Origin: Shigella phage vB_SboD_StarDew | Sequence record: NC_073082 | DNA: 44,715 nt | Direction: 5' to 3' (one strand) | In this document: positions 5,882-44,501 of the stretch, one piece after another | Numbering within the stretch: the stretch's first letter is position 1 | Layout of the letters: the number at the start of each line of letters is the position of its first letter | Made by a program: the position numbers and the translations under genes | The notes under the pieces: generated by a model | What the model saw: the letters and a program-made list of their open reading frames with translations, nothing else | Told to the model about the DNA's origin: nothing | The model's database searches: none

Positions 5882-5910
5882 TTTTGTGTCCTCGTTGTTG
5901 GTGTGCAACC

Positions 5911-10030: not shown

Positions 10031-10756
10031 ATGGGTTATCAACTTCCTAACGGGTCTAGCGTCCAGATTGGGTCCGTACTGGGCAACGGTATCGCTGTTA
10101 CGGCAGCTACCAACGCCGCCGCGTCGATCTCTGATCTTACGAAAGGGTGCGTTATCACCTGCGCGGCTTCTCATGGCTTGAAAGTTGGCGACGTGGTTAT
10201 GTTCACTAAAACCCCGTGGGTCCGTGCGCTGAACCGCGCGTTCATCGTGGGTAAAGTGGCGACTGACGACGTTACACTGGCGCGCTTCGATACTCAAGAC
10301 GTCACCAAATACCCTACCGGCGCTTTCAGCACAGGCACACCGGGTGAGGTGGTGAAGGTGTCGAGCTTTGTCGACTTCCCGTATATCACTAACGTTGCTG
10401 TGTCGGGTGGTGACCAGCAGACCACCACCTTCCAGCCGTTGCAGGTGAACACCGCGATCAGTCTGAATACCACGAAAAACCCGTTGGTCCAGACCTACAC
10501 TTTCACACACGACGAAGAAGACCCGATCCGCCCGATTCTGGAAGACCTGGACGACACACAGAAAACCACTGTGATTAAGTTCACTAACCCGGCAGCGGCA
10601 AGCGGCAAAGGTGAGATCCGCATTTACCCGGCTAAGGTGTCTTTCCAGAAGATTCCGTCGGCTGAAGTAAACAACGTGGAGACGGTGGAGTCCACTCTGA
10701 CCATGCAATCCGATATGGTTATTTACCGTAAGGACTTGGTTGAGGCGCTGTCGTAA
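10031..10756 (+). CDS. major tail protein
   Basis: 241 aa ORF with AGGAG RBS, followed by strong terminator and then chaperone G/GT and tape measure genes. Confidence 0.6.
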   Translation: MGYQLPNGSSVQIGSVLGNGIAVTAATNAAASISDLTKGCVITCAASHGLKVGDVVMFTKTPWVRALNRAFIVGKVATDDVTLARFDTQDVTKYPTGAFSTGTPGEVVKVSSFVDFPYITNVAVSGGDQQTTTFQPLQVNTAISLNTTKNPLVQTYTFTHDEEDPIRPILEDLDDTQKTTVIKFTNPAAASGKGEIRIYPAKVSFQKIPSAEVNNVETVESTLTMQSDMVIYRKDLVEALS

Positions 10757-10825: not shown

Positions 10826-11188
10826 ATGGCTAAAGCACCACTCTTTACACTTGACCCTAAGCCGACTTTTAAGCTGCCGATTGAAATCCCGCGCCCCGGC
10901 GAAAACGAACCAGGAAAAATGACGTTTACCGTGCGACACCGCCCTATAGATGAATTTTCGCAGACCATGCAGGATACTGAGCGCAAGTTGTCGGAATATG
11001 ACGACAATGATCCTGACGGCTTTAACGTTATGGTCGAGGCCATCATGCACGTCGCAGAAGGCTGGAATCTGCCGGACGAATTTAACGCGGAGAACGTCCG
11101 CCGCCTGGTGGTCAACTATCCGCGCGCGTTCGGCGTGTTCCACACTTCGTACTATCTCGAACTGATGGGATTGCGTGAAAAAAACTAA
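10826..11188 (+). CDS. tail assembly chaperone (lambda gpG-like)
   Basis: Small acidic protein directly upstream of tape measure; GGAG RBS before ATG at 10826 (track start 10811 is TTG); ends at slippery site. Confidence 0.7.
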   Translation: MAKAPLFTLDPKPTFKLPIEIPRPGENEPGKMTFTVRHRPIDEFSQTMQDTERKLSEYDDNDPDGFNVMVEAIMHVAEGWNLPDEFNAENVRRLVVNYPRAFGVFHTSYYLELMGLREKN

Positions 11189-11502
11189 TTGAGGCGGCGC
11201 GACGCTTTTATGGCCCGCCGCCACCCTCCGAAGATTTAGCCGCAAGTTTATGGGGTGCGACCCCCGAAGATGTTTGCCCGCCGGTTGCACTATGGCCCGA
11301 CAACGCGAAGGTAGTCGCAGTCTTCACAGATTGCTCCACGCAATGGCGCACCGGATTCGGTGGCGCATACGGCATCGACTACGGCGTACTGGAATGGCTA
11401 TTTAAGATGCACGGCATCGAAAACGCGCAACGTGCGTTTAAAGATATCAAGCTAATGGAACGCGTTGCGCTGGATGAAATGGCGCGGCAGAACCACGCAT
11501 AA
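10826..11502 (+). CDS. tail assembly chaperone GT-like fusion made by -1 programmed frameshift at A_AAA_AAC (11179-11185)
   Basis: -1 frame is open from 11179 to stop at 11500-11502 with no in-frame start codon until 11407; slippery heptamer sits just before the G stop codon. Confidence 0.6.
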
Positions 11503-11504
11503 CG

Positions 11505-11817
11505 GAGCGGGACAGGCGGGACGTCCCGTTTTGTCCCGCACCTCTAAAACTGCATATTTACTCACCACAATTGCATAAATTAAAAGCGGGACAGGGGTGC
11601 TGTCCCGCTTTGTCCCTCCCTTAAAAGTGAATAGCTATGCGGTTTTTCTGCATAAAACAAACGGGACAAAAAGCGGGACTGAATGGGGCGGGACAAAGCG
11701 GGACAGCACCCCTGTCCCCGCCAGTGCTGCCGCGGTTTTTAGCCGATCGGGACAGGCGGGACAAAGCCCAGTCTTTCAGACTAGACGGGGGGTCTGGCAC
11801 CCCCTCGTCTGAGACTG
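11505..11817. repeat. iteron/hairpin array A: multiple GCGGGACA repeats, palindromes, ACTGCATAA motifs and a 49-nt imperfect hairpin
   Basis: Read directly; about 90 bp plus the 49-nt hairpin nearly identical to 39660-39848. Confidence 0.85.
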
Positions 11818-11885
11818 AATAAGGTTTGTTTTAAATTCGCTGATACAATGACCGACGGCAACTGCATAAAAAGGGGGACTGCATA

Positions 11886-14528
11886 ATGGCAGATCAGGCA
11901 GCGGGCATCACGCTCAAGGCGGACGTCGCGCAAATTAAAACGGCTAATACTGTGCTGGACACATTTGCGCAGAAATCCGAGAACACAGAACAGAAAGTAA
12001 AGAAATTAAACGACACCCTCGGCAAGTCGAAAAAGGTTACTGGAGACGCCGCGGGCGGAATGGAAAAGTTAGCGACTGAATCGCAGCGTGCCGCCGATGG
12101 CATGACGAAACAGGAGCGACTCGCCAGCCGATTAGGCATGTCGACCAAAAACCTGGGATTCGCATCGCGGAACGCCGCATTCCAGTTACAGGATATTGCG
12201 GTGACGCTTGAAATGGGTATGCCGGTGCACCGCGTTATGCTTCAGCAGTTACCGCAGCTTACTGGGGCGTTTGGCGGACTGGGTAACACGCTGCGATATG
12301 TTGCGGGCTTTCTCGGCCCAGTAGGGATCGGCCTTTCAGCATTAACGGCGACGTTAGGCGTAGGGGTGGCAATTACGACCCGCGCAGAGAACCAGGTGGC
12401 GGCGCTTAATAAGACGCTGGCGCTGTCCGGTAATATTTCAGGCCTCACAGCTAACCAGATCCTTGTGCTGTCCGAGAACGCCGAGCGCATGGGCGGGTCA
12501 TTTCGCAAGACGCGTGACACAATCCAGGCGCTGGCGGCGGCGGGTGTGAAAGCTGGTGGTGACTTCGGAGCATTGGCTAAGGTAGTTAATGACTTTGCGA
12601 AGGTGTCCAGCCAGCCGATCGAGGATGTGGTAGCGGCGGTGGCGAAGCTGTCAACCGACCCCGTTGGCGGACTGCGTGCGCTGGCGGATAAGTATCACGT
12701 CGTAAACGAAGCGCAGATCCAGCAGGTACAGTCGCTCGTTGATGCGGGTCGTGAGACAGACGCAGTTGCGTTGGCTAACAAAACAGCCGCTGCGTCGTTC
12801 ACCAGCATGACCAATGAGATCAAGGCGAACATGGGTACGCTTGAGCGATCTATGAACGTCGTCACATCGGCAGCCAAATCAATGTGGGATGCCATCCTGG
12901 ATGTGGGCCGCGCGCAGTCCTCGAATGAGTCAGAGATGAAAGCGCGTGAGTCATTGCAGCGCATGACCACGGCTTATTATGCCGAGATGAAAGCGGTAAA
13001 CGCTGCCGGTGGGGTAATGACTGAAGCGCAGAAAGCACGTATTAACATGCTTTACAGCGAACTGGTCGCCCAGGAAAAAGTGGTGGCGTCGCTCACCCTG
13101 CGTAACCGTGCTGAACGAGACAACTCCCGCGCCGCAGACGAATCCGCAAAGGCGAACGAGGAGGCCAACCGCACCGCCCGCGACCGCGCCGCGTTTGAAA
13201 AGGAGTACGCAACTAACGCGAAGAAGCGCGCCGACGAGATCGCCCGCCTCAATTTGCTGAATAAGCGCGGCGTTATTGACGAGAAAGAGCTTGCTGAGGC
13301 GGTGAAGCAGGTAAACGAGCGGTACAAAGACCCAGCCCCGAAAAAGGCCGCGGCTGTTCGTGTGGATGCCGGTATGAAAATGCTGGAAGTCGCACGGAGC
13401 GAACTGGCCCAGCTTCGAGAATCCGGCAAGCAGATCGAAGCCAACGCGACTACGCAGACCCGCACGCAACGCGCTCAAGCGGCCTTAAACAAGCTGATCG
13501 CCGACAATGAGCAGTTAATCGCTGCGAGCAAAGAAAGAGCGCTAACGGCAGCAGAAAAGCAGCAATTAGTCGAGTTCGGGCGCGTGAAGGAAGTCCGCGA
13601 GCAGATCGTCGAAGAAGCCAAATTGCTGGATGCGAAAGAGCAGCAGGTTAAGGCGCACGCGCAGATCGATGCCTTCGTTAAGAACCAGAACGCCGAACTA
13701 AAAGCCACCGCCGCGGGGTATGCGCTTTCCACTCGCGAAGCGGCAAACCTGCGCGAAGAATTGCAGCTAATCGATCGCCTGAAGCGGGTTGGCGCTAACG
13801 ATACCGATATTGACAAGGCGGTGTCTAAGCTGCGAGAAGTGCAGGAAGCACAGACCGGCGCTAACGCCTCGTTATGGGATGGATTCAGTCGCGGGCTTAA
13901 GGATAGCGTGTATGAAATGGGTAACGGATATACGCAGATGGCGTCGCTCACGAAATTTACATTCAGCGCTATGCAGGACACGATGAACGAGTTTTTCGAG
14001 ACTGGCAAGCTGAACGCAAAGGATATGGTTAAGTCCATCCTGAGCGAATTAATCAAGCTGGCTACCTCGCAGGCGTTCAAGTCCATCGTTAGCGCTTTCG
14101 GTGGCGACGGCGGCAAAAACGGATTGTTCGGCGCTATATTCTCCGGCCTCACTAAGAATGCGGACGGCGGAGCGTACTCAGGGGGCAATCTCGCGGCCTA
14201 TTCAGGGAAAGTGGTAAGCCAGCCTACCTTTTTCAGTTATGGCGTCCAGGCGTTCGCTAAGGGCGCAGGATTGATGGGCGAGGCTGGTCCTGAGGCCATC
14301 ATGCCACTGAAGCGCGGGCCGGACGGGAAACTGGGCGTTGCCGCGTCTGGCGCAGGCGGTGGTATGGTCGTGACGACTAACGTTTACACGGGGACCGGTA
14401 AAACGGATACCAGTGTCAGCGGGCCGGACCCCCGTACTGCGCAGGCGTTCGGCAAGCAAATCACCGAGGCGGTGAAGGCCGAGATCGTGAAGGCGACGAA
14501 ACCGGGTGGTGTACTTTACAAACGATGA
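11886..14528 (+). CDS. tail tape measure protein
   Basis: 880 aa, coiled-coil-rich middle, Gly-rich C-terminal part; follows G/GT chaperone. Confidence 0.9.
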   Translation: MADQAAGITLKADVAQIKTANTVLDTFAQKSENTEQKVKKLNDTLGKSKKVTGDAAGGMEKLATESQRAADGMTKQERLASRLGMSTKNLGFASRNAAFQLQDIAVTLEMGMPVHRVMLQQLPQLTGAFGGLGNTLRYVAGFLGPVGIGLSALTATLGVGVAITTRAENQVAALNKTLALSGNISGLTANQILVLSENAERMGGSFRKTRDTIQALAAAGVKAGGDFGALAKVVNDFAKVSSQPIEDVVAAVAKLSTDPVGGLRALADKYHVVNEAQIQQVQSLVDAGRETDAVALANKTAAASFTSMTNEIKANMGTLERSMNVVTSAAKSMWDAILDVGRAQSSNESEMKARESLQRMTTAYYAEMKAVNAAGGVMTEAQKARINMLYSELVAQEKVVASLTLRNRAERDNSRAADESAKANEEANRTARDRAAFEKEYATNAKKRADEIARLNLLNKRGVIDEKELAEAVKQVNERYKDPAPKKAAAVRVDAGMKMLEVARSELAQLRESGKQIEANATTQTRTQRAQAALNKLIADNEQLIAASKERALTAAEKQQLVEFGRVKEVREQIVEEAKLLDAKEQQVKAHAQIDAFVKNQNAELKATAAGYALSTREAANLREELQLIDRLKRVGANDTDIDKAVSKLREVQEAQTGANASLWDGFSRGLKDSVYEMGNGYTQMASLTKFTFSAMQDTMNEFFETGKLNAKDMVKSILSELIKLATSQAFKSIVSAFGGDGGKNGLFGAIFSGLTKNADGGAYSGGNLAAYSGKVVSQPTFFSYGVQAFAKGAGLMGEAGPEAIMPLKRGPDGKLGVAASGAGGGMVVTTNVYTGTGKTDTSVSGPDPRTAQAFGKQITEAVKAEIVKATKPGGVLYKR

Positions 14529-22039: not shown

Positions 22040-24112
22040 ATGGCAGCGGGTACACTATCCGTAACGAATAACAGCAAGGCGGTTGTCGGGGTCGGCACAA
22101 CGTTTACGGCGTTTAAAGCGGGCGACTTCTTAACGCTGGTGGTGGGTCAAGTCCCATACACCGTAGCGATCGCGTCCGTTGAAAGTGCAACCGCGCTAAC
22201 GCTGGTGCTGCCGTTCGACGGCCCTACGGCAACCGGCCTAGCATGGGATGGCGTTAAGCGCGACACCATGTCGCTGGCGACGATGGGCGTAACCGTCCAG
22301 GCACAGAAAGCGTTGCGCTTGATGATCGCAGATGAAAACAACTGGCGTGCAATCTTCGGCGACGCTGAAGAAATCACAGTGACGTTACCTAACGGGCAAG
22401 TTATGCAGGGCATGTCGTGGGGCTATTTGTCCTCCTTGCTGAAGGAAGTAGACCCCGTTGAGATGCGCAACCTTCAACAACAGGCCGAGACGGCTAAAAA
22501 CCAAGCTGTTACCGCTAAGGGGCAGGCAGAATCGGCGCGCGACGCAGCTAATACGGCGAAGACTGGGGCGGAGACGGCACGCGACCAGGCTAACAATGCG
22601 AAGACCGACGCGCAGACCGCAAAAGGCCAGGCCGAATCCGCGCGCGACGCCGCTAACACTGCGAAGACCGGGGCGGAGAATGCCCGCAACCAGGCACAAG
22701 GCTATCGTGACGAGGCTGAAGGCTTTAAAAACCAGATTAACCCTTCGCAGTTTATGCAGAAGTCGCAAAACCTGAATGACGTTGCCGATAAAGCGAAGGC
22801 CCGCACTAACCTGGCGTTAAATCGTTTCAACCAGCCGCGCGCCGATTTAACCGAGGTGTACTCTAACGACGACCGTACGGGGTACAAGCTGATTGTAAAA
22901 GATAACGGCGACTGGGGTGCGATGAAACACGATGGTAGCGCGAATATGGCGCTAAGCATCGGTTTTGGTGGTACTGGTGGCAAGACCGGGGCTGAAGCAC
23001 GTGCGTCGCTGAACGTATTTAAACGTGACCGAACATCACTAGGAGAGAGAGATCTGGATACTATCGACGGCAGCGGCGACGGTCCAGGGGTGTATTTCCA
23101 GGCGTCGTCAGCCGCGGCAACGTCAGCGCGCCACTACCCGGAAGCGACAGCGGGGATGCTGGAGGTATTCCAGCACGGGGCAAATGGTGAGTCGGGGGCT
23201 ATCCAGCGCTACACGCCGTTTACGATCTTAGCTATTGCGCCGGAAGGCAGCCAGGAATATGCGCGCGCGGGAAAAGGCACATTCTATGTGCGGTCGAAAA
23301 ACGGTAACGCCCCTAAATGGTCGCCGTGGTTGCCGTTTCAGACGGGTCTTTATGGTGGCGTTGTCAGTTATCCGGGTACGCAGGAGCGCTCAAGTTGGAC
23401 GGATTATGTCAACGTACTCGCACAACAACCAAGCAGCATGGGGACGTATAACATTCGTTCAGTAGGTTGGGTGAATGCCATCTCATCCCGACACCTTAAC
23501 GGCACCGGCGATGGCAGCAATTACGGTGTTGTTTTTGAGGATGGGCAAATGGCGGCTACCCACTACAAAAACGTAACAGTAAGAAAACAGGTAGCTGGTA
23601 ACTGGATTAACCCCGTCACGTTATGGCATACAGGAAACACCACGGTTGACAGCAACGGCTTTGTGAAGCGCGCATCACCAATCGTGAAGGTGTTCGGGAC
23701 CGGTGATTTCGAGACTAACGACGAAAGCGAAGGATGCAAGGTCGAGAAAGTAGGCGTAGGAGAGTATCTCATCACCGGATGTATGGCGCTTAACGCTGAT
23801 CTGGCCTGGGGTGGCGTGCGTGGCGGTATTGAGGTGCCGAGGGATATTAACGGTCAGCCTATTTTGTGGGTTGATTATGAAGTCAACGCAGACGGTAGTC
23901 TTCTGCTTAAGACGTTCCATCGTGAACATCACGACGCGCCGGTGTTCGCACGTAATACGGTGCCGGGTTACTCAAACGGCGACCCTATTGATATTCCTAA
24001 CGATGTTTTTGTGTCAGTGCGTGTGGACATGCCAGAAGATTCGATTTACAACGTACGGGAGCGTGAGATGCGAGCGATTGCTGAGGTTGAGTTAGCAACG
24101 GGGGTAAGGTGA
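22040..24112 (+). CDS. tail fiber protein with internal tandem repeats
   Basis: 690 aa; AAGAGGA RBS; N-terminal domain shared with 14565 gene; Ala/Lys/Gln-rich repeat (GQAESARDAANTAKTGAE twice). Confidence 0.75.
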   Translation: MAAGTLSVTNNSKAVVGVGTTFTAFKAGDFLTLVVGQVPYTVAIASVESATALTLVLPFDGPTATGLAWDGVKRDTMSLATMGVTVQAQKALRLMIADENNWRAIFGDAEEITVTLPNGQVMQGMSWGYLSSLLKEVDPVEMRNLQQQAETAKNQAVTAKGQAESARDAANTAKTGAETARDQANNAKTDAQTAKGQAESARDAANTAKTGAENARNQAQGYRDEAEGFKNQINPSQFMQKSQNLNDVADKAKARTNLALNRFNQPRADLTEVYSNDDRTGYKLIVKDNGDWGAMKHDGSANMALSIGFGGTGGKTGAEARASLNVFKRDRTSLGERDLDTIDGSGDGPGVYFQASSAAATSARHYPEATAGMLEVFQHGANGESGAIQRYTPFTILAIAPEGSQEYARAGKGTFYVRSKNGNAPKWSPWLPFQTGLYGGVVSYPGTQERSSWTDYVNVLAQQPSSMGTYNIRSVGWVNAISSRHLNGTGDGSNYGVVFEDGQMAATHYKNVTVRKQVAGNWINPVTLWHTGNTTVDSNGFVKRASPIVKVFGTGDFETNDESEGCKVEKVGVGEYLITGCMALNADLAWGGVRGGIEVPRDINGQPILWVDYEVNADGSLLLKTFHREHHDAPVFARNTVPGYSNGDPIDIPNDVFVSVRVDMPEDSIYNVREREMRAIAEVELATGVR
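22490..22700 (+). repeat. in-frame tandem DNA repeat (about 102-bp unit, about 2 copies) inside tail fiber gene
   Basis: Repeated GGCCAGGC(A/C)GAATC(G/C)GCGCGCGACGC(A/C)GCTAA(T/C)AC(G/T)GCGAAGAC(T/C)GGGGCGGAGA read directly. Confidence 0.8.
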
Positions 24113-32992: not shown

Positions 32993-33775
32993 TTAACGGC
33001 GGCGACGTTTGCGTGGCGCTTCGTCTTCGTCGTCGTCCTCATCTTCGTCATCGCGTGGCTTACGACGTTTGCGAGGTTTTTCATCTTCCTCATCGTCGTC
33101 GTCATCGCGGCGCTTGGACTTTTTGGACTTACGCGGCTTATCATCTTCATCATCGTCATCACGACGTTTTGACTTCTTAGCCTTGCGCGGTGCTTCGTCT
33201 TCGTCGTCGTTGTCCAGGTCTTCATCGGAGCAAGAAGATCCGCCACCGCCGAAGGCTTCGCCGTCATCCCGGAAGCGCAGACCCAAAAGACCAGCACCGA
33301 GTCCCTTGCCGTTGGTATTGTTCCACGCCCAAATATCCAGTGACACGTTGCAATAACAACCGGAGTAGATCTCCTGGCCTTCGATCTCGTCGCCTTCTAC
33401 GGTCAGACCTTGTTCAGTCTGCTTCTCGCCGAGTGACGTTTGAATGTTTGGTTGTTTGAACGATTTGGCGTTGATGTACAACATGCCTTCGAATTCTTCG
33501 GTTTCTTCGTCGCGCTCGTCACCGTCGCGAACTGCACATTCCTTAGAATCCTGGGCGTAGTGGCGGTCCATCCACTTATCGGCATTCTTCTCGGACTTCA
33601 GCTTGTCGGTGAGCACTGCGCGCGCTGCCGCTTCCACTTTGTCCACCTGCGGATCTTCTTTATCCAGAAGAATCACGGCGCGGTATGCTGGTTTTTGTCC
33701 ATCCTGTTTAGGGGTATCGCGTTCCCAAATTTTCAGGAAACATACGCGCACATTTTTCAGGTTGACTTTAGCCAT
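32993..33775 (-). CDS. putative ssDNA-binding protein (T7 gp2.5-like / DUF2815-like) with repetitive charged C-terminal tail
   Basis: N-terminal MAKVNLKNVRVCFLKIWE and central GKGLGAGLLGLRF resemble gp2.5-type SSB; GAGGAA RBS; C-terminus is D/E and K/R block repeats. Confidence 0.5.
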   Translation of the reverse strand: MAKVNLKNVRVCFLKIWERDTPKQDGQKPAYRAVILLDKEDPQVDKVEAAARAVLTDKLKSEKNADKWMDRHYAQDSKECAVRDGDERDEETEEFEGMLYINAKSFKQPNIQTSLGEKQTEQGLTVEGDEIEGQEIYSGCYCNVSLDIWAWNNTNGKGLGAGLLGLRFRDDGEAFGGGGSSCSDEDLDNDDEDEAPRKAKKSKRRDDDDEDDKPRKSKKSKRRDDDDDEEDEKPRKRRKPRDDEDEDDDEDEAPRKRRRR

Positions 33776-36009: not shown

Positions 36010-36525
36010 TTAATCTTCCAGTTCGAAATAAGTTTCGACGATTTCTTTAAGATCTTTGTGGAAGTCTTCGACGTCTTCATCTTCCAGCTTGGCGATTGAT
36101 TTGATCTCGAACGATTCCAGCAGGTCGTCAAATTCGTCGTTCGCGTCGTCGTCGTCACCACCGGCAATAATAGCGGCATATTGTTTGATTTCGTCGCGCA
36201 TCTCCGCCAGCGGATCGGCATCTTTCTTGCCTTTGACTTTCGCCGGGGCTTTTTTAGATTTAGCCGGTTTTTCGTCTTCGGCATCATCGTCGTCATCTTC
36301 TACGACTTCTTTTTTGGCCTTACCTTTCGCCGGGGCTTTTTTAGATTTAGCCGGTTTTTCGTCTTCGGCGTCATCGTCGTCATCTTCGACAACTTCTTTT
36401 TTCACCTTAGACGGCTTCTTGTCTTCCTGCTTACCAACGGCAGCGCCAACGGTTTCATAATGCTTAGCGATGGTTTCCAGTGCTACTACGCCGCGAGTAA
36501 TCAGGTTTACGATTTGTTCAAACAT
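36010..36525 (-). CDS. first gene of leftward early operon: protein with tandem Lys/Asp/Glu-rich repeats and acidic C-terminus
   Basis: GGAGA RBS before ATG at 36525; 26-aa unit KKEVVEDDDDDAEDEKPAKSKKAPAK repeated twice; track ORF 36010..36753 trimmed. Confidence 0.55.
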   Translation of the reverse strand: MFEQIVNLITRGVVALETIAKHYETVGAAVGKQEDKKPSKVKKEVVEDDDDDAEDEKPAKSKKAPAKGKAKKEVVEDDDDDAEDEKPAKSKKAPAKVKGKKDADPLAEMRDEIKQYAAIIAGGDDDDANDEFDDLLESFEIKSIAKLEDEDVEDFHKDLKEIVETYFELED

Positions 36526-36925: not shown

Positions 36926-37255
36926 ATGAATGTAAATGACGCAATCGAAATGTTAACGAAGACTGTTAGCAGTGAAACACGCCGGTCATGGGCTTATACC
37001 GATGCCGTGGGGGCGGTGTTATTTGAAATCGAACGACTGCGCAGTGTCGAAAAAGAATTACGCGCCAGGCTGGAATTGCTCAACGGCACGGCAGCAAGCA
37101 AGCTGCAAAAGCACAATGAAGAAATGGAAGAATACAAAAAACAGGTTATCCGTTTGCGCGCCGAGGGCAAATCCTGGGCGATGATTGCCGAGTTGACCGG
37201 AATTAATCAGAGCACAGTGCGCTCCTGGGTACGCAATAATAAAACTTCTAAGTAA
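36926..37255 (+). CDS. HTH DNA-binding protein (candidate transcriptional regulator)
   Basis: C-terminal helix-turn-helix-like segment GKSWAMIAELTGINQSTVRSWV; GAGGG RBS; first rightward gene. Confidence 0.55.
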   Translation: MNVNDAIEMLTKTVSSETRRSWAYTDAVGAVLFEIERLRSVEKELRARLELLNGTAASKLQKHNEEMEEYKKQVIRLRAEGKSWAMIAELTGINQSTVRSWVRNNKTSK

Positions 37256-37265
37256 GGCCGCGGCA

Positions 37266-39530
37266 ATGAGCTTAATTAAATTCGCTGTAACACGACCCGC
37301 TAAAAAAGGCGAAAAAGCCAGGGCGGAAAACTTCCAGATGACTACCGAAGAGTTTTTCGAATTTATCAATGATGCGAAAGAAATCTCCTCGGTGCATATC
37401 AACAAAACGGAAGATAAAGCGGAGTATGCACGCCGCAAGCGTAAGGCCGATGGCATTGTGGCTTATACCAGTGACGGCTTACGTCGCAAGACCAGTGCGG
37501 TGGACCGCTCGATCCTGTTCTTCGATATTGACCGTACTGACACCCGCACCCTACGCCGCTGCCGTAAGGCGTTCATCGACGCGGGACTGGAACACGTATT
37601 TCACACCACAACCGGCGACCGCCACCCGCTGAAAGGCGGCACGCGTTGCGCTCGATTCCTGGTACTCACGGACAAGCCTGTACCAGCTGAAGACCTGGGC
37701 CGTGTCCAGTATGCGCTATTACACCAACTGGGCCTGTCAGATGTGGACTTCGACGACTGCACGAAAGACACAAACCGCCTTATGTACCTGCCACACCAGC
37801 AGTCTGTTATTAAGTGCCACTATGGCAAGCGCGCCCGCGTCCGTCGTCTGCTCCGCCTGGCTGACAAGCTGGGAGTGGAAAAAGAGGAAGTTCGCCGCGA
37901 ACTGACCCAGGGCGACGACGCAGTGGCAGACGGCATTCTGGACTGGTGCTTCCAGGCAGGATTCGAGGAGTTATCTTCCGGTCGGGGTTATGAAGTGCCG
38001 TGCCCGAACGAACATCTGCACAGCGGCGAAGGGTCGACGGCTATCATGGTCAAGGATGGCGAGATCCGTTTCAAGTGTATGCACACCGGCAACGAGTGTT
38101 GCTCGGAGCTGAACAGACACCAACACCTGGCGCTGCGTCTTATCGGCATACCGGACCACCTCAACGTCGAGCCACACAATATGTCCCGTAAGCAAATCGC
38201 CGCCATCCTTCCGGGGCTGGACGACGAGGAAGTGGAATCCTTATACGAACATATTGTTGATGCAGTTGGCGACGGCGAAGAATACGGCGTGTGCACCGAT
38301 GCGGACCTGGATAACGAGCTGGTTGCGCTGTTCAGTAAGCACGACCCGATCATCGAGGGGTTGATTAACTTTAAATCGACCTGGTACATGGCTGGCGAGT
38401 CGAATATCGGTAAGTCTTTCTACGTGCTGGGCCAGATGGGAGCGGTTGCCGCCGGTATTCCGTTTGGTGGCGCGAAGGTCGTCCAGTCTCATTGCTTCTA
38501 TTTCGACGCGGAAGGTGGCGAAGCCTCCAACCAGCGTAAAGAAGCATTGCAGATTAAATACGAGCACGACCTGGACAAGCTGCACATTATAGACCTGCAG
38601 TCACGCGGCTGGGATATCACCAGCAAATCAGGCTTGCGCGAAGTTATCAGCTTTATCAACCGCACCGCTAACGGCGAACCGGTTGGCCTGGTGGCGTTCG
38701 ACTCACTCAACCAGACGGTTGCGTTGCGGTCCGCTGATGCTAAACCGTTCGACGAGAACAACGCCAGCGATATGGGTGAAGTGGTCAAAGCGCTGAAGGC
38801 CATCGCGGAAAATACAGGTGGCAGTGCGGGCGTCATCCACCACCCGGCTAAAGGTGCAAACGGCAGCAGAACGCCACGCGGGTCCGGTGCGCTGCATGGT
38901 GCTGTCGATTCTGCGTTCTTCCTGGAACAGCCGGACGACAACCAGCCCGGACAATTGAACCTGTATCACGAAAAGTCACGTAACGGCATCAAGCAAGCGC
39001 CGCGCGGCTTCGTCCTGCTCAAGTGCAAGGTGAAGGTGGATCTCCGCAAGTCAGAAGCGTTCGAGGCGCACCAGTCCACCAGCACCGGGCCAGACTTCGG
39101 CGACGTGGTTGCCGGATGGGACGTCAAGCCGATTGCCTCCACGCCACGCGACGAGACTCTCTACCTCGTACCGGTTGCCCTGGCACCGTTCGCTATTGAA
39201 CAGGCGAAGGCCGCGGGCAAAGCAGCAGTTAAAGAAGAGAACACCGCCGGACCGCGCAACGAAAAAGAGAAAGTGCTCTATGCGGCACTGGAAAAACTGA
39301 TGGAAGATAACCCGGACCATACTGGATTCAGTAAATCGGCAATTGTCCGCCAGGCTGGGCTGGCAAAAGGTGGCACTTCGACGAAGGCAATCGACGATAT
39401 GGTGGAGCGCGGGGTGATAGGTTTTTACACCGATCCGCACACCGGGGCCATCTATGGGTCGTCTAATTTGGTCATCAAATCGGATATACCCATCACGCTT
39501 TCAGCGACCGATGACGATTTAAAAGATTAA
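37266..39530 (+). CDS. DNA primase/helicase-like replication protein (prim-pol-like N-terminus, Cys/His cluster, RecA-like ATPase domain)
   Basis: ILFFDIDR acidic motif, Cys/His cluster CPNEHLHSGEGS...FKCMHTGNECC, Walker A MAGESNIGKS and Walker B-like LVAFDSLN. Confidence 0.65.
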   Translation: MSLIKFAVTRPAKKGEKARAENFQMTTEEFFEFINDAKEISSVHINKTEDKAEYARRKRKADGIVAYTSDGLRRKTSAVDRSILFFDIDRTDTRTLRRCRKAFIDAGLEHVFHTTTGDRHPLKGGTRCARFLVLTDKPVPAEDLGRVQYALLHQLGLSDVDFDDCTKDTNRLMYLPHQQSVIKCHYGKRARVRRLLRLADKLGVEKEEVRRELTQGDDAVADGILDWCFQAGFEELSSGRGYEVPCPNEHLHSGEGSTAIMVKDGEIRFKCMHTGNECCSELNRHQHLALRLIGIPDHLNVEPHNMSRKQIAAILPGLDDEEVESLYEHIVDAVGDGEEYGVCTDADLDNELVALFSKHDPIIEGLINFKSTWYMAGESNIGKSFYVLGQMGAVAAGIPFGGAKVVQSHCFYFDAEGGEASNQRKEALQIKYEHDLDKLHIIDLQSRGWDITSKSGLREVISFINRTANGEPVGLVAFDSLNQTVALRSADAKPFDENNASDMGEVVKALKAIAENTGGSAGVIHHPAKGANGSRTPRGSGALHGAVDSAFFLEQPDDNQPGQLNLYHEKSRNGIKQAPRGFVLLKCKVKVDLRKSEAFEAHQSTSTGPDFGDVVAGWDVKPIASTPRDETLYLVPVALAPFAIEQAKAAGKAAVKEENTAGPRNEKEKVLYAALEKLMEDNPDHTGFSKSAIVRQAGLAKGGTSTKAIDDMVERGVIGFYTDPHTGAIYGSSNLVIKSDIPITLSATDDDLKD

Positions 39531-39607
39531 ATTTTGCGCGCATTGGTCGCCGTTATGGGAATCCCCATATCGGTAAAAGATTAAATTTTGCGCGCATTGG
39601 TTGCCAT
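39521..39607 (+). repeat. pair of 31-nt direct repeats (AAAAGATTAAATTTTGCGCGCATTGGT(C/T)GCC) separated by 25 bp
   Basis: Read directly; first copy overlaps primase stop codon; each copy contains an ATTGGT(C/T)GCC element. Confidence 0.85.
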
Positions 39608-39659
39608 TTTGCGTGCTTTTAGCCGGTCGTATTGGTTGCCGTGTAGTGTAAATATAATG

Positions 39660-39848
39660 AATAGTTATGCAGTTTTATTGCATAAAGTAAGCGGGACAAA
39701 AAGCGGGACAGACCAGGGGCGGGACAAAGCGGGACAGCACCCCTGTCCCGCCCCGGATGACGCGGCCTGGCGAGGAGCGGGACAGCGGGACAGCACCCCA
39801 GTCTTTCAGACTAGACGGGGGGTCTGGCACCCCCCTCGTCTGAGACTG
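39660..39848. repeat. iteron/hairpin array B, near-duplicate of array A
   Basis: Shares GGGACAAAAAGCGGGAC, GGGGCGGGACAAAGCGGGACAGCACCCCTGTCCC and the 49-50 nt hairpin with array A. Confidence 0.85.
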
Positions 39849-40007
39849 CATAAAATCCAGGATTGCATAACGCACGGCAACATGATGCAAATTGCGGTCG
39901 TCGATGATCTAGGCAACCAATGCGAGTTGCAGAATGGTGGGTGAGAAATGCAGTTTGCAGTCACAGCAGATAGCGATCAACTTTTTCATACGCGTGATTA
40001 ATATTGG

Positions 40008-40036
40008 TTGCACCCACCCTGGCACCCTGCTATATT
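40008..40036 (+). promoter_or_regulatory. candidate promoter: -35 TTGCAC within ATTGGTTGCA, 17-bp spacer, -10 TATATT, conserved leader
   Basis: Leader TATATTGGTTGCACACCAACA...GAGGAC nearly identical to the reverse complement of 5890-5916. Confidence 0.45.
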
Positions 40037-40064
40037 GGTTGCACACCAACATGAGGACTGAACA

Positions 40065-40370
40065 ATGAAAGCATTAATCTGGAATTACACAATGGCGGTG
40101 GCGAAGCTGTATGAAGCGAAGCACACAGACGGCAACGCAGACGACGCTCGCCAGGTTGTCATCCTGGCCCGGCAGGGAATCATGGACGCGTTCGACGATA
40201 TGTTTGCCAGCCTGGACGAACTGGAACCGCTGCGCGTGGCAATCTGCGAATATGCGAGGGCATTTGCCCGTGAGCGCCTGGCGTATCGCTTCGGGATCGG
40301 AGAGACGGCAGCGACAAACGTCGCCCGGATTAAAGCCCAGCGCGAGCTATTCGCCCAGCTTGCGAAATAA
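40065..40370 (+). CDS. hypothetical protein (101 aa)
   Basis: GAGGA RBS; first gene downstream of promoter at 40008-40036. Confidence 0.5.
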   Translation: MKALIWNYTMAVAKLYEAKHTDGNADDARQVVILARQGIMDAFDDMFASLDELEPLRVAICEYARAFARERLAYRFGIGETAATNVARIKAQRELFAQLAK

Positions 40371-40379
40371 GGGGCCAAA

Positions 40380-40649
40380 ATGGACCGCAGACGCGCAAAA
40401 CGCCTTTCATGGCGTATTCCACTGCATTGCATACGAATATGGGCTAAGAATGCGAATGAGGGCGATTCTGTGTTCTGGTGCTATCGCGACGATGTGAAGC
40501 CATTAACGCAGACTCGCTATCTGCACCAGTTCGCCAGGGGGCATGGGCTTGCCATAAAAACGTCCTTGCAACCAATTGGCATCCGTATTACATTACGCCG
40601 GAAGCCCGCAGTCGAGCGGGTAGGCAAACACTGGAGACTGAGCAAATGA
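40380..40649 (+). CDS. hypothetical basic protein (89 aa)
   Basis: AAGGGG RBS 6 nt upstream of ATG; alternative-frame ORFs overlap, so coding frame uncertain. Confidence 0.35.
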   Translation: MDRRRAKRLSWRIPLHCIRIWAKNANEGDSVFWCYRDDVKPLTQTRYLHQFARGHGLAIKTSLQPIGIRITLRRKPAVERVGKHWRLSK

Positions 40650-40789
40650 CACCAGCACTAATGGCGGGATTCTCGCAGAAGTTTATTTCTGTTGATGCCT
40701 GCATAGCAGATTATGAGATGGACGGCATCGCTACGGTGTGCGATGGCGACACGAAAACGGCCGATGAGACTGAGGAGACAGAACAATGA
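40646..40789 (+). CDS. small acidic ORF (47 aa), ATGA-coupled to neighbours
   Basis: GGAG RBS 9 nt upstream; start overlaps upstream stop, stop overlaps downstream start. Confidence 0.35.
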   Translation: MTPALMAGFSQKFISVDACIADYEMDGIATVCDGDTKTADETEETEQ

Positions 40790-42096: not shown

Positions 42097-42338
42097 TTAT
42101 CTCCGTCCTGTTGTTTGTTATCATAGGGGCTTCGTCCCTGTTTAACGTGTATGCGCCGTCTGTCCAGGATGGCATTTTCGGTCGGGTGCTGTATCTGTTA
42201 ACGGCAATGGTCTGTATTATCGGATTGTTGCAAACAGGAGACGTATCTGATACCACCTGGACCGCGTTAATCTGGCTGTTTGCATTGCGCACACTGCGTA
42301 ATGCTGTTTTGAATGGGGTAAAACATGCGATTCAGTGA
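42093..42338 (+). CDS. second holin-like membrane protein (holin/antiholin candidate)
   Basis: 81 aa, hydrophobic segments; GGGGGG RBS; ATGA overlap with previous gene; overlaps endolysin start. Confidence 0.5.
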   Translation: MIISVLLFVIIGASSLFNVYAPSVQDGIFGRVLYLLTAMVCIIGLLQTGDVSDTTWTALIWLFALRTLRNAVLNGVKHAIQ

Positions 42339-42816
42339 CAACGGTCTGAGATTCACGGCAGCCTGGGAGGCTTTCAGCCCAGTGCCGTATTTCGCGACCA
42401 AGAAAGAGCAGGCCCGCGGCCTGTACACCTGGGGCTATGGTCACACCGGCACTAATCCGCCACGAAGCATTACCCGTGCGGAAGCGCTGGAACTGCTCAA
42501 GCGAGATGTGGCGTATGCCGAGGACTGGGTGAACAAATACGCACATCCGAGCATTAACCAGGCGCAATTCGACGCGCTGGTTGACCTGGTAATCAACGCC
42601 GGTCCGGGTCCGATCGTACCTGATGACGTCGCGAATGATTTCGATGATGCGGTGCGACTGGGAGACTGGGCGAAGGTCCGTGCTACGCTGCCGCTGTTCC
42701 GCAAGCAAGGTGGGGAAGTGCTTAAGGGTCTGGTACGCCGTGCAATCGGCAGACAGGCGTTGTTTGATGGTAAGCAGTGGGACGTTGCCGAGAAAATCGG
42801 GCGTAACGCTGCATAA
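42325..42816 (+). CDS. endolysin, phage lysozyme (GH24-like)
   Basis: 163 aa; N-terminal region (RFTAAWEAFSPVPYF...GLYTWGYGHTG) matches T4/P22-type lysozyme active-site layout; follows holins. Confidence 0.7.
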   Translation: MRFSDNGLRFTAAWEAFSPVPYFATKKEQARGLYTWGYGHTGTNPPRSITRAEALELLKRDVAYAEDWVNKYAHPSINQAQFDALVDLVINAGPGPIVPDDVANDFDDAVRLGDWAKVRATLPLFRKQGGEVLKGLVRRAIGRQALFDGKQWDVAEKIGRNAA

Positions 42817-42832
42817 TACGAGGTAACACAGT

Positions 42833-43240
42833 ATGTTAAAAAGCATTCTTGATCATAACGCCGACGCGCTCGCCGCGCTGGCTAAAACCGAAGACCCCGG
42901 CGCACGCGCTATTGTAGCGGATACGATCAGCCATGCGGGGGTGTTTGGCGCAAGCCTTCCGGGTCCGAAACCAGAGGTAAAAGTGACAAGCGCCACGGTA
43001 ACTGTAGCTCCCGAGGCGGTTACAATCGGCACCCCGGCGAAGGCTACTGCGGCGGTACAACCGGCAGGGGCGACCAATAAATCCGGCGTGTGGGTCAGCG
43101 GGTCGCCGACCATTGCCACCGTGGATGCTTCCGGCAATATCACGGGTAAAGCACCTGGATCTGTCGATATTATTTGGGTGGCTAAGGATGGAAGCGGGGT
43201 GTCGGGCCGCAAAACGGTAACTGTGGCAAACGCAAAGTAA
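42833..43240 (+). CDS. Ig-like (Big_2-type) domain protein
   Basis: C-terminal alternating pattern (VTVAP...VTIGTPAKATAAVQPAGATNKSGVWVSGSPTIATVDASGNITGKAPGSVDIIWVAKDG...TVTVAN) typical of bacterial Ig-like group 2 domains. Confidence 0.5.
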   Translation: MLKSILDHNADALAALAKTEDPGARAIVADTISHAGVFGASLPGPKPEVKVTSATVTVAPEAVTIGTPAKATAAVQPAGATNKSGVWVSGSPTIATVDASGNITGKAPGSVDIIWVAKDGSGVSGRKTVTVANAK

Positions 43241-43358: not shown

Positions 43359-44501
43359 ATGCACCCGCAAACTAAAATCACCGACGAGCAATTGATCGCC
43401 GAGTTGCAATCCGGCACTACCGCGAAAGAGATTGCGAAGAAGTACGGCCTTTCCCTACGAAACGTCTATATGCGCAAAGCCCGCCTGTCGAAGAAAGGTA
43501 TTGGTCACGGTAATGATGCCGTAATCCGTAAGCGCGTTGCCGATGGCTTCGGCGTGAAGCGTGTCTCCGCCCTGGTGCGTGGCAATGGCGAAGAGGTCAT
43601 GTCGTGGGTTATCACAGAGCAGGACAAGGAGCGCCAACTCGAAGCTATGCGCGCTGTTGTCGAGGGCATGAACAGCGAAATCACACCGGCAGCGCCAGTA
43701 AAAGCCCCGCCAGTCCCGATCCAGGCGCTCGACTTGCTAAACCTGTACACCGTGTCAGACTTCCACCTGGGCATGTTGGCGTGGGGCGAGGAGACTGGAG
43801 AAGACTGGGATATGGCAATCGCCGAAGATCTGTTTTACCGCTGGTTTGTCGAAGCCTTCGCACGCGCACCAGACGCAGGCACTGCCGTAATTAATATCCT
43901 CGGTGATATGGCGCACTTTGATAGCCTCGATGCGGTCACCCCGGCAAGTGGTCACGTACTTGACGCCGACACCCGATACCAGAAGTTGGTCCGCTACATG
44001 ATTCGCATGGTGCGCAACGTCGTCGAACTGGCGCTGCAAAAACACCACAAAGTCAAACTGCTAATCGTCCAGGGGAATCATGATGAGTCGGGCATGATTT
44101 GGCTTGCTGAGATGTTCAACACGCTGTACGAGAACGAGCCGCGCGTCGATGTGGATACGTCCCCGGACGTCTACAAAATGGTGCAGCACGGTAAGACCAC
44201 GCTATTCTTCCACCACGGGCACAAAGCGCGATTCGATGCTATCGAGACGGTTATGATTGCTAAGTTCAGGAAAGCATTTGGCGAAAGCGAGTACAGCTAC
44301 GCGCACGTAGGCCACTTGCACCACCAGAAGATTGTAGAATCCCGCAACATGATTGTTGAACAGCACCGGACGCTCGCAGCGAAAGACGCCTACGCCAGTC
44401 GTGGCGGTTGGATGTCCGGTCGCAGCGCAAACGTCATCACCTATAGCGCCAACTACGGCGAAGTAGCACGCTTAACCATTAGCCCGGAAATGTTGAAATG
44501 A
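43359..44501 (+). CDS. fusion protein: N-terminal HTH domain + calcineurin-like metallophosphoesterase
   Basis: HTH-like TAKEIAKKYGLSLRNVYMRKARL; phosphoesterase motifs VSDFHLG, ILGDMAHFD, VQGNHDE, FFHHGH, HVGHLHH in canonical order. Confidence 0.65.
   Translation: MHPQTKITDEQLIAELQSGTTAKEIAKKYGLSLRNVYMRKARLSKKGIGHGNDAVIRKRVADGFGVKRVSALVRGNGEEVMSWVITEQDKERQLEAMRAVVEGMNSEITPAAPVKAPPVPIQALDLLNLYTVSDFHLGMLAWGEETGEDWDMAIAEDLFYRWFVEAFARAPDAGTAVINILGDMAHFDSLDAVTPASGHVLDADTRYQKLVRYMIRMVRNVVELALQKHHKVKLLIVQGNHDESGMIWLAEMFNTLYENEPRVDVDTSPDVYKMVQHGKTTLFFHHGHKARFDAIETVMIAKFRKAFGESEYSYAHVGHLHHQKIVESRNMIVEQHRTLAAKDAYASRGGWMSGRSANVITYSANYGEVARLTISPEMLK

Follow-up and report, generated by a model that had tools for sequence, protein, structure and literature searches.

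Duplicated repeat arrays with a conserved hairpin in Dhillonvirus genomes resemble iteron-type replication origins

The genome of Shigella phage vB_SboD_StarDew (NC_073082; its 44,715 nucleotides (nt) are the window analysed here) carries a non-coding array of short repeats, palindromes and a long hairpin between the tail assembly chaperone genes and the tape measure gene (site A), and a second copy just past the helicase-primase gene (site B). The array is real, strongly non-random, conserved and non-coding. On balance, sequence comparison suggests that it is probably an iteron-type replication origin with a second copy in the tail operon, in the manner of P4 ori and crr, pRN1, and SPP1 oriL and oriR. 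Support for this reading comes from comparative anatomy and from covariation of the repeats with their proposed reader, and the design is likely to be a new variation on known origins.

Site A occupies the entire gap between the tail chaperone and the tape measure gene, which the original prediction had put at 380 bp. Its parts, in order, are:

11503-11885, plus strand: site A, the whole non-coding gap from the tail chaperone stop to the tape measure start, 383 bp
11507-11539: palindrome 1, GCGGGACA-G-GCGGGAC/GTCCCG-TTT-TGTCCCGC, four repeat units forming nested inverted pairs just past the chaperone stop
11550-11579, plus strand: M1, an AT-rich double TGCATA module with half-sites 21-22 nt apart, 75% AT
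11583-11611: palindrome 2, AAAGCGGGACAG-GGGTG-CTGTCCCGCTTT, an inverted copy of the palindrome at 11685-11718
11628-11656, plus strand: M2, an AT-rich double module, TGAATAGCTATGCGG-N6-CTGCATAAA, at the start of the block common to site B
11661-11718, plus strand: four direct CGGGAC(A) repeats, at 11662, 11674, 11689 and 11699, spaced 12, 15 and 10 nt, a spacing kept in site B, phiEap-2 and AH01
11719-11746, plus strand: spacer with conserved CTGCCGC..GGTTT..GCCGA, with counterparts in phiEap-2, AH01 and FSL SP-031
11747-11764, plus strand: two further direct repeats, at 11748 and 11757
11769-11817, plus strand: 49-nt three-tier hairpin
11841-11849, plus strand: TGATACAAT, resembling an extended -10 promoter by consensus only, 36 nt before the tape measure start
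11856-11886, plus strand: CGGCAAC and then two ACTGCATAA motifs, the second overlapping the tape measure ATG

The repeats do occur in both orientations, as had been claimed: the CGGGAC core appears nine times on the plus strand and three times on the minus strand of site A (12 in total), and the fourth direct repeat pairs with an inverted partner (GGGACAG-CACCC-CTGTCCC). Two palindromes described as perfect, CGGGACGTCCCG (11517-11528) and GCGGGACAG-GGGTG-CTGTCCCGC (11586-11608), are exact, and the four predicted TGCATA-type motifs are present as TGCATAA at 11572, 11649, 11863 and 11880, the last overlapping the tape measure ATG; the gap holds five TGCATA motifs in all. Genome-wide, GCGGGACA has 16 exact copies against 2.0 expected, a number reached in none of 100 shuffles, with seven copies in 11507-11763, seven in 39691-39792 and two elsewhere (14 of 16 in the two sites). 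TGCATAA likewise has 16 copies against 5.8 expected, four of them in each site. As in iteron origins, direct repeats of one short motif are thus clustered and largely confined to two sites, with six in order in each copy. An adjacent AT-rich region, a further anatomical feature of such origins, is also present: the M modules are 70-80% AT and lie between the 99.6th and 100th percentiles of all 40-nt windows in the genome (M1 at the 99.9th and M2 at the 99.6th), a likeness of anatomy only.

The duplication suspected near 39.7 kb is plain. When the gap was compared with the rest of the genome by BLAST, 11628-11822 matched 39658-39853 with 84.3% identity over 198 columns (E 1.3e-53), a highly significant similarity, and 11586-11620 proved to be an inverted 35-nt copy of 39717-39751 (97%). 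BLAST of the gap and a motif count over the genome found no further copies of the element beyond sites A and B, which lie 28.0 kb apart, or 16.7 kb the other way round the circle. The parts of site B are:

39531-40064, plus strand: site B, the non-coding region past the helicase-primase gene
39658-39686, plus strand: M module, within the most AT-rich 40-nt window of the genome (80% AT)
39691-39792, plus strand: repeat array, with direct repeats at 39692, 39704, 39720 and 39730, an inverted partner at 39745-39750, a spacer, and repeats at 39778 and 39786
39799-39848, plus strand: copy of the hairpin, 50 nt, with one C more than that of site A
39847-39881, plus strand: two TGCATAA motifs and CACGGCAAC past the hairpin

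The upstream edge of site B has repeats of another kind: two 38-nt direct repeats (TAAAAGATTAAATTTTGCGCGCATTGGTyGCC) at 39520-39611, 92% alike and 54 nt apart, start in the last helicase-primase codons and extend into the site, and each bears an inverted GCAACCAAT-type motif.

Site A is found in 157 of 157 Dhillonvirus records of the phage collection, at 78-94% identity, and both copies are kept in all of these records and in a second genus, Eiauvirus. Across 17 distinct genomes, site A is 383-408 nt long and differs by 1-nt insertions and deletions. A protein-coding gene in the gap (open reading frame (ORF) 11637-11822) was rejected: its ATG is lost in nine of the 17 genomes, 1-nt insertions or deletions fall in 11 of them and several have early stops. 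Comparison with related genomes, which the original prediction had proposed as a check, thus reveals no reading frame conserved over the gap. What is conserved in the same 17 genomes is the motifs: CGGGAC cores score 0.95, TGCATA 0.95, hairpin stems 0.99 and the TGATACAAT sequence 1.00 (invariant in 17 of 17), against 0.64 for the hairpin loop and 0.785 for the remainder; third codon positions of the flanking genes, from five genomes only, score 0.84. Selection therefore acts on the motifs rather than on a reading frame, and the spacers drift. At the place of palindrome 2, some genomes have an inverted copy of the downstream palindrome and others repeat palindrome 1.

Orthologous copies are 88% (A with A) and 90% (B with B) identical, whereas paralogous A and B copies are 80% identical; A and B from the same genome are slightly more alike than A and B across genomes (80.7% versus 79.6%, permutation p 0.001). 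Because orthologues resemble each other more than paralogues do and there is a slight same-genome excess, the duplication is old and short conversion has occurred occasionally. A selfish or neutral repeat module without a dedicated function, whether an insert like a miniature inverted-repeat transposable element or a recombination hotspot, copied once into the tail operon and tolerated there, could also leave two copies per genome, slight concerted evolution and internal units shuffled among genomes. We consider this highly unlikely, as its motifs are under clear purifying selection while spacers drift, both copies persist throughout the genus and in a second one, orthologues being closer than paralogues speaks against ongoing spread, and the genome has no further copies.

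The suggestion that site A interrupts a normally tight chaperone-tape measure junction is supported by relatives beyond Dhillonvirus: a T1-like Henuseptimavirus, which has a homologous chaperone, has only 42 nt at this point, and in phiEap-2 and Pantoea phage AH01 the genes overlap or abut. In Edwardsiella phage eiAU (Eiauvirus), whose chaperone is 46% identical, both places that hold sites A and B in Dhillonvirus have large gaps, and these gaps resemble each other and carry a repeat word of their own, CGCCCCG. The eiAU gap at the tail junction (L005) spans 1.1 kb (42121-43015 and 1-221), of which about 790 nt upstream of the repeat module look like minus-strand coding sequence (annotated ORF 42365-42718) and are absent from Dhillonvirus.

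Following helicase-primase homologues at 43-69% identity through phage records and metagenomic contigs led to an ordered plan that lies directly past the helicase-primase gene in phiEap-2, AH01, Cornellvirus FSL SP-031 and the metagenomic contigs L142 and L146; in eiAU the plan, hairpin included, occupies the tail-gene site. The plan opens with the M module, an AT-rich double 12-mer, and continues with four direct repeats that are GC-rich, the fourth of which has an inverted partner. A spacer with CTGCCGC..GGGTTTG.TGCCGA and two more repeats come next, then a long imperfect hairpin, TGCATAA- or TTATTCA-type motifs with CACGGCAAC, and finally a sigma70-like promoter of the next operon. Two copies of GTGAATAGTTAT, 22 nt apart, make up the M module, which hardly varies across Guernseyvirinae and has GTGCATAcCTAT...GTGCATAAA as its Dhillonvirus version; the 42-nt stretch around it is 91-98% identical between phiEap-2 and about 30 Salmonella phages. 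The repeat word, by contrast with this module, differs between lineages: CGGGACA in Dhillonvirus and L142, CGGACAA in phiEap-2 and AH01, GGGGAGA in SP-031, GGGATAA in L146 and CGCCCCG in eiAU. The spacing of the repeats is nonetheless kept across lineages, at about 12-13, 15-16, 9-10, 46-49 and 8-10 nt. Guernseyvirinae members have one copy only, past the helicase-primase gene, and 37P2/L143, L144 and L145 have other repeats and hairpins at that site.

CACGGCAAC lies past the hairpin in four of the five relatives compared and is missing at eiAU site A. As a separate observation, ACGGCAAC (complement GTTGCCGT), at 11856-11862 and 39875-39881, follows the hairpin in all relatives compared except at eiAU site A, and recurs in large non-coding control regions of Jerseyvirus SE2 and a Kagunavirus, both of which lack the remaining element (comparison of L046, L140, L141, L146, L147 and L148).

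This ordered architecture shared across genera is new here. The array is not new as an observation, as orthologous DNA is already annotated in the record of Sodalis phage SO-1 (GQ502199.1), whose repeat_region features cover region A (11214-11597, between gp16 and the tape measure gene) and region B (40178-40657, past the helicase/primase gene) and describe both as direct, inverted and palindromic repeats with mutual similarity. That entry is an annotation note only, without the cross-genus architecture or the link to a winged helix. Elsewhere, the HK578 record annotates a rho-independent terminator at palindrome 1, just past the chaperone stop, and the phage jat record a repeat_region at palindrome 2. 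Our literature search found no paper that discusses the element, its sequences, the SO-1 regions or Dhillonvirus regulation.

The long imperfect hairpin was also correctly predicted. That of site A (11769-11817, 49 nt) folds with -26.5 kcal/mol (z -3.05) and that of site B (39799-39848) with -28.4 kcal/mol (z -4.43). Three tiers make up the structure, an outer stem AGTCT/AGACT, a middle stem AGACG/CGTCT with a bulged T and an inner stem G5/C5, and they enclose a variable loop. Within Dhillonvirus the stems are almost invariant and the loops differ (TCAATGG, TCAGCGG, TCTGGCA, TATCGG and others); one divergent genome carries a compensatory change of AGACG/CGTCT to GGACG/CGTCC. Five lineages beyond Dhillonvirus have the same three-tier fold with different stem sequences and an inner stem of a G-run and a C-run, under both RNA and DNA parameters. 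RNAalifold on 11 sequences kept 11 pairs, four of them with compensatory changes, which given the small sample and imperfect alignment are supportive rather than decisive. A loose hairpin-pattern scan of the collection returned mostly chance matches, and gained two Dhillonvirus-type variants and the SO-1 site B copy.

Such conservation raises the question of whether the shared block is read as RNA. A structured non-coding RNA running from the M module through the repeats to the hairpin, acting in cis (by put-like antitermination or as a primer RNA) or in trans, would fit a hairpin whose structure survives changed stems across genera, an orientation relative to transcription that is constant in every case seen, and the strong folding of both sites (z -9.4 for site A and -3.65 for site B). 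We nevertheless judge this improbable. The long-range pairing behind the strong fold of site A is not a conserved feature, because internal units are shuffled among genomes and palindrome 2 is replaced in many of them. Where the other repeats are G-rich, those of eiAU are C-rich on the same strand, and turnover of the word with its spacing kept fits a protein reader better than base pairing. Moreover, Rfam 15 gave no matches (in E-value mode, the only models to appear were generic long-hairpin miRNA ones, with 20-33 bits where the cut-offs are 37-100), and no promoter or terminator of such an RNA is recognisable.

The protein proposed to read the repeats is encoded directly upstream of site B:

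37266-39530, plus strand: helicase-primase gene, the proposed trans-acting partner, 754 amino acids
39249-39485, plus strand: C-terminal winged-helix domain (residues 662-740), the proposed repeat reader

This protein matches Pfam AAA_25, and its core is similar to RSF1010 RepA (superfamily 4 (SF4) type, not SF3); the N-terminal 340 residues hold an invariant Asp-x-Asp, a His and a Cys/His cluster. A search with the C-terminal 195 residues alone returned no matches, whereas the full-length query found homologues. Among ten helicase-primases, the three pairs that share a repeat word hold the top three ratios of winged-helix to core identity of 45 pairs (0.83, 0.79 and 0.72). AH01 and L146, whose words differ, have cores that are 90% identical and N-terminal parts that are 85% identical, against only 39% for the winged helix; AH01 and phiEap-2, which share a word, reach 78% for the core and 56% for the winged helix. 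Winged-helix divergence thus tracks the repeat word. The small helix-turn-helix (HTH) protein (36926-37255), which the original prediction had put forward as a possible binder, was rejected as the reader because its relatives do not covary with the word (AH01 and L146 are 60% identical, AH01 and phiEap-2 51%); the Dhillonvirus protein is of the HTH_23 type and unrelated to the small HTH proteins of the relatives.

Several roles had been suggested for the array: a replication origin, a binding array for a regulator or the primase, or a late-transcription control element. Sequence comparison speaks for a combination of the first two, with an origin-type array that the helicase-primase reads, because the ancestral copy lies directly past that gene in several genera and the word changes with the winged helix. 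Late-transcription control is less favoured. In such a transcription-control module, the repeats would bind a regulator, palindromes and hairpin would terminate or attenuate transcription, and regulated promoters downstream would mark the early-late boundary at site B and re-boost the late operon at site A. Site B does separate the early helicase-primase gene from lysis and structural genes of the same strand, terminator-like hairpins follow the chaperone stop, and the invariant TGATACAAT precedes the tape measure gene by 36 nt. Relatives have sigma70-like promoters past the element (TTGACA-17-TATTGT in AH01 and TTGCAA-17-TAATAT in SP-031), and the M module is flanked by GCAACCAAT, a second enriched motif that elsewhere overlaps promoters. 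On the other side, the 49-nt hairpin lacks the T-run (U-tract in RNA) of a rho-independent terminator, and a terminator scan returned nothing on the plus strand at either site; palindrome 2 was flagged as terminator-like on the minus strand only. The M module matches no sigma70 consensus, and a simple -35/-10 scan of site A found nothing. No late activator, sigma factor or antiterminator is recognisable, fourteen binding sites far exceed what a promoter usually needs, and it is the helicase-primase winged helix, not the small HTH proteins, that covaries with the word. We regard such a module as the main rival of the origin reading, plausible but rather unlikely. Canonical sigma70 promoters and intrinsic terminators inside the arrays were rejected, as none was found on the plus strand.

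A second enriched motif deserves mention in its own right. GCAACCAA(T) has 18 copies against 1.8 expected, almost always intergenic and overlapping sigma70-like promoters, at 5905, 5919, 22015, 25345/25357, 27255, 27272, 30214, 33832, 33903, 36730, 39597, 39632, 39913, 40004, 40035 and 40568. The promoters include TTGACT-17-TAATAT, on the minus strand at about 36.75 kb, whose spacer holds the motif, and TTGCAC-17-TATATT at 40008-40036, upstream of the gene at 40065. Variants in relatives (GCAACCAAC, CAGCCAAC and CGGCCAAC) likewise flank the M module. This motif is probably the operator of a phage regulator.

Record ends raise one further alternative, that site A is a packaging signal (pac) or the physical end of the genome. 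Several GenBank records, including eiAU KF772233, start or end within site A, and repeat clusters are typical of pac sites. However, the three Dhillonvirus records checked (NC_073063.1, MZ234029.1 and LR990702.1; L041, L042 and L043) have exact 127-nt end overlaps, inside site A. These records are 127 bp too long and broken at the repeat because they are uncollapsed circular assembler contigs, so that physical ends or a pac site at site A were rejected, the record ends there being assembler artefacts. Nor is the element linked to the terminase genes; its linkage is to the helicase-primase gene. Phage BF9 uses headful packaging according to PhageTerm (PMC10059673), and its match to site A lies about 12 kb from the start of its record. 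We hold a packaging role to be exceedingly unlikely. The elements do account for frequent assembly breaks here, and for the spurious small ORFs that gene callers place in the gap. Among other irregular records, PQ843332.1 is 88,607 bp long, about two genome lengths.

Several known origins offer partial precedents for an origin read by the helicase-primase. P4 has one octamer iteron, direct and inverted, in two separated regions, ori and crr, 4.5 kb apart. Its alpha protein is said, with reference to Ziegelin et al. 1993 and the origin-binding domain structure 1KA8, to join a primase, an SF3 helicase and a C-terminal winged-helix origin-binding domain. Here too the same octamer lies in two separate regions in both orientations, and one polypeptide carries helicase-primase and C-terminal winged helix. 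The helicase, however, is of the AAA_25/RepA type rather than SF3, P4 is not known to have a conserved large stem-loop, and its regions are 4.5 kb apart as opposed to 16.7 or 28 kb. Because the helicase is of the RepA(RSF1010)/SF4 type, the phage protein is not homologous overall to P4 alpha; with the domain order of the P4 type present and the SF3 helicase lacking, it would work alike without being a member of that class.

The oriV of RSF1010 (IncQ) has iterons, GC-rich and AT-rich segments, and stem-loop single-strand initiation (ssi) signals read by a plasmid primase. Its iterons and stem-loop priming signals parallel the putative ones of the phage element, and it has the closest helicase, but it uses three separate proteins (RepA, RepB' and RepC) and two oppositely oriented ssi hairpins.

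In pRN1, replication needs a stem-loop just 3' of the primase-helicase-winged-helix gene, with structure conserved above sequence, and the operon runs from a small DNA-binding protein through that gene to the stem-loop, a layout also seen in phage BIP-1 (PMC4234260). The operon order and a stem-loop immediately downstream of the helicase-primase-winged-helix gene, its structure kept more than its sequence, are found here as well. pRN1 differs in its SF3 helicase, its archaeo-eukaryotic primase (AEP) prim-pol domain, which is proven (the N-terminal domain of the phage protein matched no family or fold), the lack of an iteron array and a stem-loop of about 100 bp rather than 49-61 nt.

For the second copy, SPP1 is the best precedent by analogy. 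Its initiator, when bound to oriR, is proposed to act by stalling forks, which would set off the change to concatemer synthesis (PMC6316719; PMC3485210). As here, one SPP1 site is close to the replication genes and the other breaks into the conserved order of the late structural genes; round the circle the two are separated by about 13 kb, compared with 16.7 kb here. SPP1 differs in having a separate gp38 initiator, gp39 loader and gp40 DnaB-type helicase, with host primase, and an oriL within gene 38, whereas the phage studied here has a fused helicase-primase instead. SPP1 lacks a conserved hairpin and shares no homology in sequence or protein with this phage system, although no search with the SPP1 proteins was made.

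From these likenesses we infer a possible mechanism, in which the repeats are bound, the DNA unwinds, the hairpin is a place of priming and site A has a part of its own. The lineage-specific GC-rich repeats (CGGGACA here) would be iterons bound by the C-terminal winged helix of the phage helicase-primase, and cooperative binding would gather the enzyme beside the AT-rich M module and the conserved stem-loop. The duplex might open at the M module, at the extruded stem-loop or at both, allowing the RepA-like hexameric helicase to load and the primase part to start synthesis. Site B would be ancestral and site A an old duplicate, inserted in the common ancestor of Dhillonvirus and Eiauvirus, whose role may be that of a second origin, of a P4 crr-like cis enhancer or of an SPP1 oriR-like fork barrier leading to concatemer synthesis. 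The insert would break the late operon, hence an extended -10-like sequence that could restart transcription into the tape measure gene; TGATACAAT looks like such a promoter behind the insert, though by consensus resemblance only.

A more ambitious version is tentative, and we offer it as a possibility: one composite origin design may serve Dhillonvirus, Eiauvirus and part of the Guernseyvirinae. A fused primase, RepA-type helicase and winged-helix protein would read fast-evolving iterons through a swappable C-terminal domain, while its conserved parts would act on the AT-rich double 12-mer and the three-tier stem-loop as a priming or loading site. The tail-operon copy might then be a programmed second origin or fork barrier that times the concatemer switch while splitting late transcription.

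Several points weigh against a duplicated origin. Our literature search found no replication, binding or transcription experiment for any of these phages. GC skew follows the direction of transcription only, with its minimum at 36-37 kb and not at A or B. DnaA boxes, which are frequent though not required in enterobacterial iteron origins, are not enriched (TTATNCACA with at most one mismatch occurs 27 times against 26 expected, once in site A), and the idea that TGCATAA represents TTATGCA-type DnaA boxes was rejected for want of enrichment. The terminator-like and promoter-like signals that flank site A could likewise belong to a purely transcriptional module. In eiAU it is the tail-gene site that has the complete module and its hairpin, and the site past the helicase-primase gene is rearranged; no comparable array follows that gene in Jerseyvirus SE2 or a Kagunavirus, whose helicase-primases are more distant. 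The N-terminal 'primase' domain matched no family or fold, so the label rests on record annotations. Lastly, the covariation of winged helix and word is confounded by linkage, because the coding end of the winged helix adjoins the array and co-transfer by recombination could mimic it. In both Dhillonvirus and eiAU, however, the unlinked site A has the word of site B, which argues for a trans-acting reader and against linkage alone. Plasmid homologues with mapped origins were sought, and none was useful.

The wider setting is that of a Dhillonvirus coliphage. This 44.7-kb genome is HK578/SO-1-like, has the gene order of SO-1 and is about 96% identical to vB_EcoS_SD276 and EP23 around the array. 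Its other features are:

14 to about 24.1 kb, plus strand: terminase, head and tail genes
10031-10756: tail tube (Pfam)
10826-11188: G-part of the tail assembly chaperone (Pfam Phage_TAC_4)
11188-11502: T-part of the tail chaperone (Pfam DUF1799)
11886-14528: tape measure gene (Pfam)
24.2-36.8 kb, minus strand: DNA metabolism genes
36926-37255, plus strand: HTH gene, followed on the same strand by the helicase-primase gene (37266-39530) and then by small genes and lysis genes

Some further repeats in the window lie inside genes. Two early minus-strand genes (33009-33227 and 36216-36389) have internal tandem repeats that are rich in GTC/GTCATC triplets, encode acidic, Asp-rich stretches and include an 87-nt unit present twice at 90% identity, and the tail fibre gene (22040-24112) contains a 105-nt repeat three times, overlapping and 64-74% identical, at 22481-22690. 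The 380-residue product of 43359-44501 is a metallophosphatase-type DNA repair exonuclease by PHROGs (E 6e-162), with Pfam metallophosphatase matches that are all sub-threshold; SO-1 labels it 'transcriptional regulator' and another record 'DNA polymerase II small subunit'. Two records that bear the names of unrelated hosts, OQ221563.1 ('Acinetobacter phage NJ01') and a 'Campylobacter' one, share 95% identity with ordinary coliphage Dhillonviruses, which likely reflects host mislabelling or contamination.

If the array is a duplicated origin, these phages would gain exact coordinates for their origin or origins and a one-protein initiator with an exchangeable specificity domain. The lineages compared here would then supply natural matched pairs of iterons and winged helices with which to study how origin specificity evolves. 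A second origin as a switch of replication mode, argued so far mainly for SPP1, would become testable in E. coli. Dhillonviruses and their Guernseyvirinae relatives include many of the coliphages and Salmonella phages that are used in defence-system research and considered for therapy.

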